From Candidatus Allofournierella excrementavium (GTDB lineage Bacteria > Bacillota > Clostridia > Oscillospirales > Ruminococcaceae), in contig DWVE01000028.1 of NCBI GenBank assembly GCA_019120375.1, positions 9,209 through 73,208 on the forward strand: DNA of 64,000 bases, written 5' to 3'. Position numbers and translations under genes: made by a program. The notes below the pieces were generated by a model. It made no database searches, was not told the DNA's origin, and saw nothing but the letters and a program-made list of their open reading frames with translations. Below, one piece after another: positions 475 through 62,627 of this stretch; position 1 is the first letter of the stretch; each line of letters starts with the position of its first letter.

Positions 475-549
475 TGGTTGGGTTGGCGGGATTCGAACCC
501 ACGCATGCGGGAGTCAAAGTCCCGTGCCTTACCGCTTGGCGACAACCCA
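475..549 (-). tRNA. tRNA-Gln (anticodon TTG), CCA encoded
   Basis: Cloverleaf folded by hand: acceptor TGGGTTG/CAACCCA, anticodon arm CGGGA-CTTTGAC-TCCCG, T-loop TTCGAAT, 3' ACCA. Confidence 0.9.
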
Positions 550-600
550 GCTTATTTATAGAAAAAAGCGAACTCTTTCGAGTTCGCTTTCCCTGTAATG

Positions 601-678
<78 letters not shown>

Positions 679-684
679 ACATAT

Positions 685-761
<77 letters not shown>

Positions 762-7387: not shown

Positions 7388-7474
7388 GCGGATGTGGCGG
7401 AATTGGCAGACGCGCTAGATTCAGGTTCTAGTGGGGGCAACTCCATATGGGTTCAAGTCCCTTCATCCGCACCA
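7388..7474 (+). tRNA. tRNA-Leu (anticodon CAG), long variable arm, CCA encoded
   Basis: Acceptor GCGGATG/CATCCGC, anticodon arm CTAGA-TTCAGGT-TCTAG, variable arm GTGGGGGCAACTCCAT, T-loop TTCAAGT. Confidence 0.9.
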
Positions 7475-33426: not shown

Positions 33427-33461
33427 CCCGGCGGGCTTTTGACCCGCCGGGTGTTTTTGTT
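33427..33461. terminator. bidirectional terminator
   Basis: Stem CCCGGCGGG / CCCGCCGGG, loop CTTTTGA, flanked by an A-run and TGTTTTTGTT. Confidence 0.8.
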
Positions 33462-34752
33462 ATTTTGCAGAGGTGAACTGATAGGTCTGGACGGTGCTGT
33501 CGGTGGGATAGAAATAGAGCCAGTCCCCTGCTTTGAGCACGCCGCAGCTCACGGTGAAAGCCCCGCCCATCTCGACCTCAGACTCCATCAGGGCGATCTG
33601 CCGGCCGCTCTGGTCACAGATCTCCACGGGGGTGATGGGAACGATGCGCTCCTCGTCAATGTACCGCTCGCCGGTTTTTGCCCGGGCAAGGGCGCCGTCG
33701 GCCAGCACGTTCATCTCACCGTCGTAATGGCACAGCGCCCCGGTATCCTTTTCCTGCACATAGACGCTGCCGTCCGCCATCACGTCGGAGATATAGCTCA
33801 GGCTGTCCGGGACGGCCACCGAGCCGTTGGTGTTCAGGATGCCAAAGCCGCCCTCATCCTGAAAGACCGGGCGGGAACCGGCGGAAAGGCCAACGATCTT
33901 GCGGCCGTCGGTGCTCAGCTTCGCGCCGGTGCGGTCATAGGGCACGCCGCTCACGACCACGCCCTCTTCCCAGGTGGTGAAGTCCGGCATGGGGCAGTTG
34001 CCGAAACTGTAGGGCGCTTCTTCCAGCACCACCGAGCCGTCGGCGTTGTAAAGCACCGCGCCGCCGTCGCCGGACTCGTCCACGAAGTAGTAGCCGTTGC
34101 GCGGGTCGCACCAGCAGTTCTTGCCGCTGACGATCACCGAGCCGTCGGGCTTGATCACATCATAGTAGTAGATCCACTCGGAGCCCGCGTCGCCCTCCCG
34201 GGCGCCCCAGCCCAGCTGGCCCATGGGCGAGATATGGATGTAGGCCGGCTGCACCAGCACATTGCCGGAAAGGTCGCAATAGCCCCACAGGCCGTCCTTG
34301 TAAAAAGGCACGATGCCGCTTTCGGGGCAGGAGTAAAGTTCGCTGAGCTTTTCCACGTTCTGCTGCAGCGTGAACCCGTCGGTGGTCATCTGCTCCACGT
34401 CGATGTTGAAAATGTCCTCCCGGGGGATGGAATACAGCGGAGTATACTGGCCGTCCTCGCTCAGACAGCCGGCCTCGCCGTTCGCCCACACCCAGGCATA
34501 GCCGTTGGAAAACATGGTGAAGAGCTCATAGCTGCCCAGCGCGCTCTCGCGCTCGGTCAGCTCCAAAGCGCCCTGAGCCGCCGGGGCTGCGGTGGGCTCC
34601 GGCGTGGGCTGTGCCTCCTGGCTGGAAACAGCGGAGGAAGGCGTCTGGTCTTCCGGGACGGACGGAGATACCGTCTGCCCGCCGCAGCCGGCCAGCAGCG
34701 CGCAGGCCAGCGCCGCAGCAGCGCCCCGCGCCAAAAGTGCGTTCAGTTTCAT
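33460..34752 (-). CDS. WG-repeat lipoprotein
   Basis: Start trimmed to MKLNALLARGAAAALACALLAGCGG (lipobox LAGC; AGGAG RBS). 430 aa with repeated ..GLWGY.D..G.. type WG motifs. Confidence 0.75.
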   Translation of the reverse strand: MKLNALLARGAAAALACALLAGCGGQTVSPSVPEDQTPSSAVSSQEAQPTPEPTAAPAAQGALELTERESALGSYELFTMFSNGYAWVWANGEAGCLSEDGQYTPLYSIPREDIFNIDVEQMTTDGFTLQQNVEKLSELYSCPESGIVPFYKDGLWGYCDLSGNVLVQPAYIHISPMGQLGWGAREGDAGSEWIYYYDVIKPDGSVIVSGKNCWCDPRNGYYFVDESGDGGAVLYNADGSVVLEEAPYSFGNCPMPDFTTWEEGVVVSGVPYDRTGAKLSTDGRKIVGLSAGSRPVFQDEGGFGILNTNGSVAVPDSLSYISDVMADGSVYVQEKDTGALCHYDGEMNVLADGALARAKTGERYIDEERIVPITPVEICDQSGRQIALMESEVEMGGAFTVSCGVLKAGDWLYFYPTDSTVQTYQFTSAK

Positions 34753-34874
34753 GGTGATCCACTCCTGTTCAGATTGTTTTATCGCAGTAAAATGCAAATT
34801 CAATATAGCACTGCCCGCAGCCGATGTCAATAAAAATTTTATCATAATATAATTTTCTGCAGCAACAACCGCTC

Positions 34875-34903
34875 TTGACAAATCCACCGCCCGATGGTAT
34901 GGT
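34875..34903 (+). promoter_or_regulatory. promoter TTGACA-N17-TATGGT for the cysK leader
   Basis: Consensus -35 at 34875-34880, 17-nt spacer, -10 at 34898-34903. Confidence 0.55.
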
Positions 34904-34921
34904 ATCTGCAAGGTGATTTTT

Positions 34922-34978
34922 ATGAATCTTGTCTATCTTGTCTCTGTGAAAGAGAATATCTGTTGTTGTCGCTGTTGA
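34922..34978 (+). CDS. candidate Cys-rich leader peptide (18 aa, MNLVYLVSVKENICCCRC)
   Basis: AAGGTGA RBS at 34910-34916, ATG at 34922, TGA at 34976-34978. Four of the last five sense codons are Cys, all TGT. It lies upstream of the cysteine synthase gene and is below the ORF-track size cut-off. Confidence 0.55.
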   Translation: MNLVYLVSVKENICCCRC

Positions 34979-35138
34979 GGGACGGCTGCTTTTTCGCGTC
35001 GGGCCAGAAAGGCCTTTGAAGACGCGGCGGGCAGACGGCCCTGCTGGTGCTGTCTGCTGCCCCCTTCAACCGCGGCCCCGACGAAAAAGCAGGGCAAGGC
35101 CTCCGGGCTTTGCGCTTTTGTTGGCAGGACCCTTTTGC
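34979..35138 (+). promoter_or_regulatory. structured leader with mutually exclusive stems (candidate attenuator body)
   Basis: GGGACGGCTGC (34979-34989) pairs with GCAGACGGCCC (35031-35041), enclosing the hairpin CGCGTC...GACGCG (34995-35026). Competing stems: GGGCAGAC (35029-35036) / GTCTGCTGCCC (35052-35062), and CCCTGCT (35039-35045) / AGCAGGG (35088-35094). Confidence 0.45.
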
Positions 35139-35174
35139 AAGGCTGTGTGCGCAGGCACACAGCCTTTTTGTTTT
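35139..35174 (+). terminator. intrinsic terminator inside the cysK 5' leader
   Basis: 12-bp stem AAGGCTGTGTGC / GCACACAGCCTT, loop GCAG, then TTTGTTTT. It ends 39 nt before the cysK ATG. Confidence 0.8.
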
Positions 35175-35212
35175 GCCCGCCGCCAAACAACGAACACAAA
35201 AGGAGAACTGTT

Positions 35213-36202
35213 ATGAAAGCTTACGAAACTCTTTCCGGCAACACCCCGCTCATCCGCATCGACTACCGGCTGGACGGCCGCCCCGGCGCGGTGTATGCCA
35301 AGCTGGAGAGCTTCAATCTCTCCGGCAGCATCAAGGACCGGGTGGCCGCCCGCATCGTGGCCCGCGCCGAGGAGACCGGCGCGCTTGTGCCCGGCCAGCC
35401 CATCGTGGAGGTGACCAGCGGCAACACCGGCATCGCCTTCGCCGCCCTGGGGGCGCTCACCGGGCACCCGGTGCACATCTTCATGCCCGAGCGCATGAGC
35501 CGGGAGCGCCGGCAGTTACTGGAGATGTACGGCGCGCAGCTGCATCTGGTGAGCGACGCCGACGGGGGCTTTGAAGGGGCGCTGGCCCAGGCGCGGCAGG
35601 CCGCCGGGGAGCTGGGCGCATTTCAGCCCCTGCAGTTCGACAACGAGGAGAACGTGCTGGCCCACTTCCACACCACCGGCGCGGAACTGCTGGCCGCGCT
35701 GCCCGGCGTGAAGGCCTTTGCGGCGGGGGTGGGCACCGGCGGCACCCTGATGGGCGTGGCCCGCCGCCTGAAGCCCCGGGGCGCCTTCATCGCCGCGCTG
35801 GAGCCGGACGCCGCGCCCCTTCTGAGCGGCGGCGCCGTCACCGGCCCCCACAAGATCGAGGGCATCGGCGACGACTTCATCCCCTCCATCGTGGACCGCC
35901 GCCTCATCGACACGGTGCTGCCGGTGAACGACGACGACGCGGTGCTCATGGCCGCGCGCCTTGCAAAGGAACTGGGCCTGGGGGTGGGCATCTCCTCGGG
36001 GGCGAACCTGCTGGGCGCCATCGAGCTCACCCGCCGGGGCCTGGGGCCCGCCGCCACCGTTTTTGCCGACGACAACAAAAAATACCTCACCACGGCGCTG
36101 GCCTCCCCCGTCCCGGCCCGGGAGGGCTTTCTCTCCTCCCGGGTGGAGCTGCTGGGCTGGAGCCGGGCGGACGCGCCCCGACCCGTTTCTCTCGCCGTGT
36201 GA
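35213..36202 (+). CDS. cysK: cysteine synthase family PLP enzyme (CysK/CysM-like)
   Basis: Start trimmed to MKAYETLSGNTPLIRI (AGGAG RBS). 329 aa. PLP lysine SIKDR, TSGNTG loop, GVGTGGT, HKIEGIG. Confidence 0.88.
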   Translation: MKAYETLSGNTPLIRIDYRLDGRPGAVYAKLESFNLSGSIKDRVAARIVARAEETGALVPGQPIVEVTSGNTGIAFAALGALTGHPVHIFMPERMSRERRQLLEMYGAQLHLVSDADGGFEGALAQARQAAGELGAFQPLQFDNEENVLAHFHTTGAELLAALPGVKAFAAGVGTGGTLMGVARRLKPRGAFIAALEPDAAPLLSGGAVTGPHKIEGIGDDFIPSIVDRRLIDTVLPVNDDDAVLMAARLAKELGLGVGISSGANLLGAIELTRRGLGPAATVFADDNKKYLTTALASPVPAREGFLSSRVELLGWSRADAPRPVSLAV

Positions 36203-62303: not shown

Positions 62304-62627
62304 ATGGCAGCCATCAACATAAACGCAGAACAATTCAAGCAGAGCGCAGCGGGGGACAAGCCCCTTCTGGTGGACTTCTGGGCCCCCTGGTGCGGCTACT
62401 GCCGGCGCATCGGCCCCGCCTATGACCAGATCGCCGGGGAGTATTCCGACCGGCTGACGGTGGCCAAGGTGAACATCGACGAGGACGGCCAACTGGCGAA
62501 GGACGCAGGGGTGGAGGTCATCCCCACCCTGGTGCTCTACCGGGACGGCAAGGCGCTGGGCTCCATCGTCGCCCCCGACTCCAAGGCGGCCATCGACCGG
62601 TTCATCCGGGAGACGCTGGAGCAGTGA
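62304..62627 (+). CDS. trxA: thioredoxin (active site WCGYC)
   Basis: 107 aa. LVDFWAPWCGYCRRIGP, VAKVNIDE, IPTLVLY. AGGAG RBS. Confidence 0.9.
   Translation: MAAININAEQFKQSAAGDKPLLVDFWAPWCGYCRRIGPAYDQIAGEYSDRLTVAKVNIDEDGQLAKDAGVEVIPTLVLYRDGKALGSIVAPDSKAAIDRFIRETLEQ

Follow-up and report, generated by a model that had tools for sequence, protein, structure and literature searches.

A candidate leader-peptide attenuator sensing cysteine upstream of a cysteine-synthase-family gene in Candidatus Allofournierella and other gut Clostridia

The element described here lies ahead of a cysteine-synthase-family gene (a cysK homologue) in a 64,000-nucleotide stretch of DNA from Candidatus Allofournierella excrementavium, referred to throughout as the window. 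It comprises a promoter, a short open reading frame (sORF) that ends in a run of cysteine (Cys) codons, a structured RNA leader and an intrinsic terminator. Judged by sequence comparison and folding models, the locus is probably a ribosome-mediated transcription attenuator that senses the supply of Cys-tRNA(Cys), a reading supported at the level of the family of related leaders. From the features set out below we infer that the sORF is translated, that ribosomes stall within it and in which direction the gene is regulated; switching in the window's own relay of RNA segments is presumably kinetic. The parts of the locus are the following.

34875..34903, + strand: sigma-70-type promoter, with TTGACA at 34875-34880, a 17-nt spacer and TG-TATGGT, the -10 box TATGGT being at 34898-34903
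34910..34916, + strand: Shine-Dalgarno (SD) sequence AAGGTGA, 5 nt ahead of the sORF ATG, right at the predicted 5' end of the transcript
34922..34978, + strand: leader ORF of 18 codons, ATG at 34922, encoding MNLVYLVSVKENICCCRC and closed by a stop codon
34961..34975, + strand: regulatory codons TGT TGT TGT CGC TGT, the TGT codons being at 34961-34969 and 34973-34975
35139..35177, + strand: main intrinsic terminator, with a 12-bp stem and GCAG loop, then UUUUUGUUUUG
35213..36202, + strand: pyridoxal phosphate-dependent cysteine-synthase-family enzyme, 329 aa (TIGR01136, 5.6e-84)

The original prediction, made from the letters of the window, had proposed a cysteine attenuator at this site, and every coordinate that it gave for the promoter, ribosome-binding site, 18-codon ORF, terminator and cysK ATG (35213) is borne out on the sequence. 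The promoter has a consensus score of 10/12, plus the TG ahead of the -10 box that marks an extended -10, and a predicted transcript start near 34910 gives the leader ORF a 5' untranslated region of about 12 nt. Four of the five final sense codons of the ORF specify Cys. The terminator hairpin, AAGGCTGTGTGC-GCAG-GCACACAGCCTT, spans 35139-35166 and is followed by the tail TTTGTTTTG. As a whole, the leader is more stable than shuffled sequence (folding z = -4.7). A small hairpin, GCUGUUGAGGGACGGC followed by UGCUUUUUCG (34971-34986, plus a T-run to 34996), overlaps the last Cys codon and the stop; a simple scan flags it as terminator-like, and a translating ribosome would melt it.

All four leader Cys codons are TGT. 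The window has a GC content of 64.5%, and in its 51 ORFs with high G+C at third codon positions (GC3) the ratio TGT:TGC is 23:332, TGT making up 6.5% of Cys codons; the earlier remark that TGT is rare in this genome therefore stands, as does its example, a trxA-like WCGYC motif that uses TGC at 62391 and 62400. With window codon frequencies, the chance of TGT at four out of four leader Cys codons is about 2e-5. Across the Cys runs of 33 related leaders the ratio is reversed (104:10) whatever the GC content of the genome, which ranges from 0.25 to 0.69, so that the bias towards the U-ending codon belongs to the element itself.

Related leaders were collected in two surveys. Scanning the downstream protein against one genome per species gave 80 loci, and a protein search with look-ups of metagenome contigs added 10 further leaders. 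The best homologues, at 91% and 87% identity, are from Candidatus Allofournierella. An sORF was scored in the 80 loci if it started with ATG, had no more than 30 codons, contained at least three consecutive Cys codons and lay upstream of the homologue; 22 of the 80 have one. The non-redundant set from both surveys comprises 33 leaders, in each of which an ORF of 12-19 codons with a Cys run near its stop is followed by an intrinsic terminator. The homologues behind them are 47-91% identical to the window protein, and their hosts are Oscillospiraceae, Christensenellaceae, Anaerovoracaceae, Erysipelotrichaceae and AT-rich Clostridia. Such sORFs are strongly concentrated at this position: there are 22 in 25 kb of homologous leaders versus 9 in 993 kb elsewhere in the same loci, a density of 0.88 per kb in the 320-nt leaders versus 0.009 elsewhere, counting both strands (97-fold; Poisson 5e-36).

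The run itself has 2-5 Cys codons in all 33 leaders, with the stop within 0-6 codons, and a terminator homologous to that of the window, a canonical hairpin with a U-tract, closes every one of them (33/33). Upstream of the run, an in-frame ATG without an intervening stop is present in the Cys frame in 33/33 leaders, versus 1/33 and 6/33 in the other two frames. Variation within the runs is almost entirely synonymous (TGT/TGC). Each sORF start has either an SD or a leaderless arrangement, with a -10 box that ends 6-9 nt ahead of the ATG; the leaderless start with a consensus promoter characterizes most mid- and high-GC members, and equivalent promoters precede all related leaders. The frame of the ATG, the synonymous variation and the presence of start signals on every sORF argue that the run is read as codons. 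The original prediction's expectation of a short ORF with a terminal Cys run in orthologous leaders is thereby confirmed across several families, in the correct frame and with start signals of its own.

These data bear on the idea that the sORF encodes a functional Cys-rich micropeptide, metal-binding or redox-active, with the hairpin ending its transcript and cysK expressed independently. The C-terminal NICCCRC is identical in seven of the nine members of the window's own group (those named are the window, L001, L002, L004, L203 and L208, with L004 and its duplicate locus counted once), as might be expected of such a peptide. Outside the terminal Cys run, however, the 33 peptides have nothing in common: their N-termini vary (examples are MKNFEACFCCCMTQRRP, MKQNEWKTCCCKTQDG, MILINIISNCCCMN and MKNLFLTAHWQNNCCCCC), and neither length (12-19 aa) nor sequence is conserved between groups. 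In every case a gene of the same enzyme family follows the sORF directly, on the same strand, a scan of the window leader detected no second promoter between terminator and cysK, and much of the nucleotide conservation lies in the noncoding relay. We regard a micropeptide as highly improbable.

Several observations on individual loci accompany the survey. Degenerate Cys runs with the downstream structure kept occur in L035 (about 2760-2990, C-Y-C, MILKNIIVNCYCR), L003 (2674-2730, C-R-C-R-C) and L206 (1318-1359, C-C-S); such natural variation could indicate the number of Cys codons that the device requires. Homologues that have no Cys leader (L044, L048, L050, L052, L053, L059, L073 and L076) share in their promoter region, some 40-60 nt ahead of the cysK gene, an inverted repeat of the form TGTAT(A/C)AAATATA(C/T). 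In these loci a DNA-binding regulator with this repeat as its operator has probably taken the attenuator's place. Two cysK homologues have a copy of the skipping-rope RNA motif (RF02924) beside them, one at L052 (2742-2818, +), about 180 nt upstream of the gene, and one at L019 (4120-4199, +). None of the 16 archaeal loci (15 Methanobrevibacter, L010-L017, L023, L026, L032, L039, L041, L057 and L068, and L080, labelled only 'archaeon') has a Cys-run sORF; the homologues in these archaeal gut metagenome-assembled genomes are 52-56% identical to the window protein, which suggests transfer between gut Clostridia and methanogens. L028 (labelled Rickettsiales) and L046 (labelled Muribaculaceae) carry leaders typical of AT-rich Clostridia (group G3 below); the labels probably reflect mis-binning, and L028 and L030 are identical in the 320 nt that precede the gene. 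Two other leads were discarded. In a metagenome scan with TGTYGTTGTCGCTGTTGA, 118 of 120 among the matches listed were chance matches in unrelated coding sequence, and only L116 and L120 among them are real leaders. The hairpin CTATGTG...CACATAG fails as a family-wide terminator signature, given that similar hairpins end unrelated upstream genes at AT-rich loci (L027, L065).

By the arrangement between stop codon and terminator, the leaders fall into three architectures.

G1: the window, L001-L004, L203-L205 and L208 (nine); stop-to-terminator distance about 140-160 nt
G2: 11 mid- or high-GC members, mostly leaderless; stop-to-terminator distance 63-105 nt
G3: 11 AT-rich Clostridia, SD-led; stop-to-terminator distance 76-99 nt

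Nearly all members of G2 are leaderless, and within G1 the SD is kept in L001, L002, L004 and L208, with L203, L204 and L205 leaderless (-10 box 6-9 nt ahead of the ATG). Nothing but the Cys-run sORF and the terminator is common to all three architectures, and the lack of any structured core between them argues against a common aptamer or ligand-binding core.

The clearest picture of switching comes from G2 and G3. We modelled the ribosome as a mask with a 28-nt footprint and scored the free-energy advantage of terminator-containing over terminator-free ensembles. In the free RNA the terminator forms, and the 3' half of the sORF, Cys codons included, is paired to a stretch further downstream, region 2; a modelled ribosome centred on a Cys codon leaves region 2 to pair with the terminator instead. 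In nearly all of 24 G2/G3 leaders the terminator advantage drops by 2-14 kcal/mol with the ribosome on the Cys codons, often becoming negative, and it stays high with the ribosome at the stop codon. When the A site was moved along each sORF, the most destabilising position included a Cys codon in 21 of 23 leaders. In these related architectures the predicted attenuation logic thus holds in silico: a stall at the Cys codons favours the antiterminator, and a ribosome at the stop codon, or none, favours the terminator. The resting structure is supported by covariation in both groups, being 84% paired in G2, with 15 pairs changed on both sides, and 92% paired in G3 (0/500 shuffles in each case). 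The G3 antiterminator is 88% paired, versus 21-60% with the partner slid; for G2, the per-sequence energetics are more informative than the alignment-mapped antiterminator.

The window's own group, G1, has a longer and more intricate relay, whose segments in the window are as follows.

34968..34981, + strand: segment a', the last Cys codon, stop and GGG; pairs with F (35061-35074) when free of ribosomes, -19.1 kcal/mol
34977..34998, + strand: segment a2 (GAGGGACGGCUGCUUUUUCGCG), alternative partner of b
34985..35005, + strand: segment B; pairs with B' (35074-35095), -27.9 kcal/mol, and closes a three-way junction
35029..35062, + strand: b:c hairpin (GGGCAGACGGCC...GGUGCUGUCUGCUGCCC), -26.5 kcal/mol
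35030..35045, + strand: candidate antiterminator strand b, able to pair with the terminator 5' arm (35136-35150)
35061..35074, + strand: segment F, resting partner of a', with an alternative partner at 35018-35023 when a' is covered
35074..35095, + strand: segment B', partner of B; alternatively, an A-tract in it can pair with the U-tract after the 35094-35113 hairpin
35094..35124, + strand: hairpin G (first hairpin, T1), GCAAGGCC-UCCG-GGCUUUGC then GCUUUUGUUGG; a possible first terminator or pause signal
35114..35140, + strand: U-rich flank that could mask the cysK SD and AUG (35196-35220) by pairing, -22.7 kcal/mol, z = -4.5

The resting state of G1 consists of three helices, all of which covary. 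Helix 1 (a':F) is 93% paired with 4 pairs changed on both sides, including a GAAAGGG/CCCTTTC co-insertion in L004; helix 2 (b:c) is 92% paired with 3 such pairs, for example A-U to G-C; and helix 3, the main terminator, is 99% paired with 5. Taken together they are 94.6% paired, with 12 pairs changed on both sides and 0/500 shuffles. The stem at 35029-35062, put forward on inspection in the original prediction, is hence a hairpin backed by compensatory changes. A ribosome on the Cys codons or on the stop codon would cover a'. The helices a':F and B:B' are mutually exclusive, and B:B' is the predicted fold when a' is masked; its compensatory changes were judged by eye in L001, L203, L205 and L208, with no formal count. 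Together with a hairpin at 35002-35014 and the b:c hairpin, B:B' makes up the covarying three-way junction of G1. Hairpin G keeps its structure within G1 and not its sequence, a hairpin followed by TTTTGG being present in most of the nine members.

The conserved segments of G1 are repeats of two complementary types, one G/U-rich (the Cys codons, c and the terminator 5' arm) and one C/A-rich (a2, b and the terminator 3' arm), and for this reason several exclusive pairings are possible in all nine sequences. Arm b of the b:c hairpin resembles the terminator 3' arm, and arm c resembles the 5' arm. The pairing of b with the terminator 5' arm is worth -21.6 kcal/mol in the window, next to -23 for the terminator, and -16 to -23.5 in L001-L004, L004 using an adjacent upstream segment in place of b; it is 92.6% paired in the nine sequences, versus 24-53% slid, and equilibrium folding never populates it. 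The pairing of c with the terminator 3' arm is 94% paired. The a2:b duplex (-22 to -27 kcal/mol in 5/5 sequences) is 88-94% paired in the nine, versus 32-55% slid, and its shuffle control is not significant. The GGGACGGCTGC:GCAGACGGCCC pairing of the original prediction does exist, and a2:b is its extended form, a -22 kcal/mol duplex possible in 9/9 G1 members. Its second competing stem, CCCTGCT/AGCAGGG, fared less well: it extends to a -27 kcal/mol duplex with segment b, but is not clearly better than shuffled sequence. Likewise, duplexes of b with the T1 5' arm reach -23 to -36 kcal/mol and are not clearly better than shuffles in most sequences. Pairing of the hairpin G 3' arm with the base of the main terminator, considered as an antiterminator, fits the window and, on inspection, neither L001 nor L003, and was dropped.

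On the proposed mechanism, the promoter at 34875-34903 would give a transcript that starts almost at the SD of the 18-codon ORF. With charged tRNA(Cys) in good supply, the ribosome would pass the four rare UGU codons and be released at UGA; a' would then pair with F, the b:c hairpin would form, and the terminator at 35139-35177 would stop transcription ahead of the gene. If charged tRNA(Cys) ran short, the ribosome would stall on the UGU run and cover a', leaving the downstream segments to re-pair, for which the candidates are B:B', a2:b with c:e, and b with the terminator 5' arm. Polymerase would read through, and the enzyme would be made only when cysteine is short.

The enzyme scores under the curated cut-off of TIGR01136, and we therefore label it a member of the family and not an equivalog. 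The 329-aa protein has no Cys codon at all, in keeping with an enzyme whose synthesis has to succeed under cysteine shortage. Its closest solved structure is Fusobacterium nucleatum Fn1055 (PDB 5B53), with 46.5% identity over 312 aligned residues. Fn1055 is annotated as a cysteine synthase, and in vitro it is a cysteine (hydroxyl) lyase that gives H2S and serine (PMC9865163, PMC9600241). In Clostridia, enzymes of this CysK-family branch might therefore act in either direction. We infer a biosynthetic role for the window enzyme, as an O-acetylserine or serine sulfhydrylase, from an attenuator logic that would be ON at scarce Cys-tRNA and from the Cys-free protein.

Several points weigh against reading the locus as a cysteine-tRNA attenuator. 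Attenuation by a ribosome works only if translation keeps up with transcription, and such coupling is reportedly absent in Bacillus subtilis. In the G1 architecture, masking had been expected to swap the terminator for an antiterminator; at equilibrium it does not, and the terminator stays, its advantage being 12.4 kcal/mol without a mask and 11.8-12.8 kcal/mol with ribosome masks placed on each Cys codon and on the stop codon. With the 28-nt mask slid over the whole leader the advantage never falls under 8.7 kcal/mol, and hairpin G is equally insensitive to ribosome position. The candidate antiterminators of G1 are preserved, with no significant covariation against column shuffles, there being too little variation in these segments for the alternative pairings to reach significance. 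For G2, an antiterminator taken from a single sequence and mapped onto the alignment is 69% paired, which is not significant either. Finally, release of H2S from cysteine, as by Fn1055 (PMC9865163), would fit induction by excess cysteine.

Cutting the transcripts off before the terminator 3' arm likewise brought no change in the pairing of the terminator. The original prediction had been unable to resolve the multi-stem relay of about 160 nt fully by hand, and equilibrium folding gave no switch in the window either. Since no ribosome position takes the equilibrium advantage of the G1 terminator under about 9 kcal/mol, the relay must be kinetic, or need another factor, or work in a way not yet understood; the function that we propose for it rests on its kinship to G2 and G3 and on the conserved set of competing pairings. 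G1 is set apart from its sister groups by the covarying three-way junction and the additional hairpin and U-tract, and in thermodynamic models ribosome position alone does not switch its terminator. The domain of about 160 nt could also be a second sensor, of a sulfur metabolite, tRNA(Cys) or a protein, making a two-input attenuator together with the leader peptide. We consider this arrangement unlikely.

The insensitivity of the G1 terminators at equilibrium is also what one would expect if control fell mainly on cysK translation, with stalling altering access to the ribosome-binding site and the terminator being constitutive and leaky, or having another purpose. Polycysteine sORFs of mycobacteria provide an experimental precedent (bioRxiv 10.1101/834739), and in the window the helix between the U-rich flank and the cysK SD and AUG (35114-35140:35196-35220), which encloses the main terminator, could sequester the start site. 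Among G1 leaders, however, this helix rises above shuffles only in the window (z = -4.5), L001 (-3.2) and L002 (-2.5); the remaining G1 members and nearly all G2/G3 leaders lack it, L008 (z = -2.3) being the sole exception. Pairing of the Cys tract with the SD region is weak (-9.9 kcal/mol), a canonical hairpin and U-tract are found in 33/33 leaders, and the terminator is the switching element in the G2 and G3 models. Mainly translational control therefore appears distinctly improbable. As an observation on the three leaders that have it, the helix may add a translational layer.

One further alternative makes the ORF incidental: the UGUUGUUGU region, together with the folded domain that follows, would act as an RNA sensor without being translated (a riboswitch, a T-box-like binder of tRNA(Cys) or a protein site). 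Nucleotides are conserved past the stop, GGGACG lying after the stop in G1 and inside the ORF in G2; the three-way junction of G1 covaries; and the strong U bias at synonymous Cys sites could reflect RNA pairing. The apical loop of b:c contains UGC or UGU in 6/9 G1 members, but UGY is missing from the other 3/9, and a T-box-like specifier in that loop was rejected on this count. The Cys-frame ATG (33/33, versus 1/33 and 6/33), with an SD or leaderless spacing on each, and the modelled ribosome optimum exactly on the Cys codons speak for translation, and the absence of a structured core common to the three architectures against a sensor. A scan of 34700-35300 with Rfam 15 found no T-box (RF00230), SAM-I/S-box or other riboswitch at the gathering threshold or at E<=10, in keeping with the earlier search by eye for a T-box or SAM core; nor did it match any amino acid leader family (Trp, His, Leu, Thr, Phe, leu/phe leaders). 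The sole matches in the leader were chance-level snoRNA and miRNA models, all with E>0.5. An untranslated sensor is thus very doubtful, and a leader-peptide attenuator is the reading that we carry forward. Nor did a scan of 20 related loci that have no sORF reveal a T-box or SAM element, such as would point to the exchange of one regulator for another.

Terminator-based attenuation by leader peptides is a textbook mechanism, and the enterobacterial attenuators (trp, his, leu, thr, pheA, ilv) share with the present leaders a promoter-proximal short ORF enriched near its end in codons for the end product and an intrinsic terminator ahead of the structural gene. Their mutually exclusive helices, set by ribosome position, have a counterpart in the models of G2 and G3, which follow the 1:2 / 2:3 / 3:4 logic in silico. 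They differ in that cysteine would be sensed here, in Clostridia and not Proteobacteria, with many members leaderless; in the lack of sequence or covariance-model similarity to the Rfam leader families; and in the stop-to-terminator distance of about 160 nt in G1, where no switch is seen at equilibrium. The his leader has six segments, and it is this one that the multi-segment G1 relay most resembles.

Systems that respond to cysteine are known elsewhere. The leaderless polycysteine sORFs of mycobacteria act translationally, with no terminator, the Cys tract pairing with the downstream SD (Canestrari et al. 2020, bioRxiv 10.1101/834739 / Mol Microbiol 114:93). Like the Clostridial leaders, many of which are also leaderless, they have consecutive Cys codons at the 3' end, lie upstream of cysteine biosynthesis genes and sense charged tRNA(Cys) through ribosome transit, as is proposed for the Clostridial set. 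Unlike them, the Clostridial leaders have a hairpin and U-tract after every sORF; the window sORF is SD-led, with a Cys tract that pairs only weakly with the SD region, and there is no sequence homology between the two sets, which belong to different phyla. In Rhodobacterales, uORFC-8-2 upstream of cysS is a predicted, untested attenuator (Brewer et al. 2021, PMC8632094). It too has tandem Cys codons within a stem and then an intrinsic terminator; in contrast to the window, from Oscillospiraceae, it belongs to alpha-proteobacteria, its two Cys codons, mostly UGC, are at positions 14-15 of a two-stem architecture, and it regulates a tRNA synthetase gene and not a synthase. Candidate Cys leader peptides upstream of cys and cbs operons in Actinobacteria (Seliverstov et al. 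2005, PMC1262725) are similarly short ORFs with Cys-codon runs near the stop, but that survey saw no terminator hairpins, and its authors proposed Rho dependence. Within Firmicutes, the Cys T-box, S-box/SAM-I and CymR have the same physiological target, cysK-type genes, and the Cys T-box also senses tRNA(Cys) charging with a terminator/antiterminator output; the T-box and S-box do so by direct binding of tRNA or ligand, whereas sensing here would be through translation.

Full-text literature searches for the element brought up no Firmicute or Clostridial Cys leader peptide, and Rfam has no model for one, so that the device is apparently an undescribed Cys member of the leader-peptide attenuator class. 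The original prediction called such a device unusual for this lineage; that holds for the literature and for Rfam, but not for the genomes, where the device is common among gut Clostridia.

Two features of the surrounding DNA may be recorded. A divergent promoter at 34802-34830 (-), TTGACA-17-TATATT with a score of 11/12, makes the intergenic region a back-to-back promoter pair; it probably drives a 430-aa ORF at 33460-34752 (-), which has no NCBIfam family match and an N-terminus resembling a lipoprotein signal peptide. Rfam also finds four tRNA genes in the window, a cluster of three at 478-761 (-) and one at 7388-7471 (+).

If the reading is correct, cysteine would be a new amino acid for a classic mechanism: the searchable literature contains no experimentally established terminator-based example for cysteine, the nearest cases being the translational attenuators of mycobacteria and the untested cysS predictions of alpha-proteobacteria. 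Leader-peptide attenuation of amino acid genes is, to our knowledge, regarded as rare in Firmicutes. The family adds variants of its own, namely the combination of leaderless sORFs with intrinsic terminators and the extended relay of G1, and a recurrent regulatory element without annotation gains a label. Its 33 leaders, in three architectures and in abundant gut Clostridia, are a comparative dataset with mutational predictions, which bears on whether translation keeps pace with transcription in Clostridia and whether leaderless initiation drives attenuation. Control of intrinsic terminators by both leaderless and SD-led sORFs would imply tight coupling of transcription and translation in these bacteria, in contrast with Bacillus subtilis. 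The finding also suggests that, in these organisms, the Fn1055-like branch of CysK may serve cysteine supply rather than H2S release.

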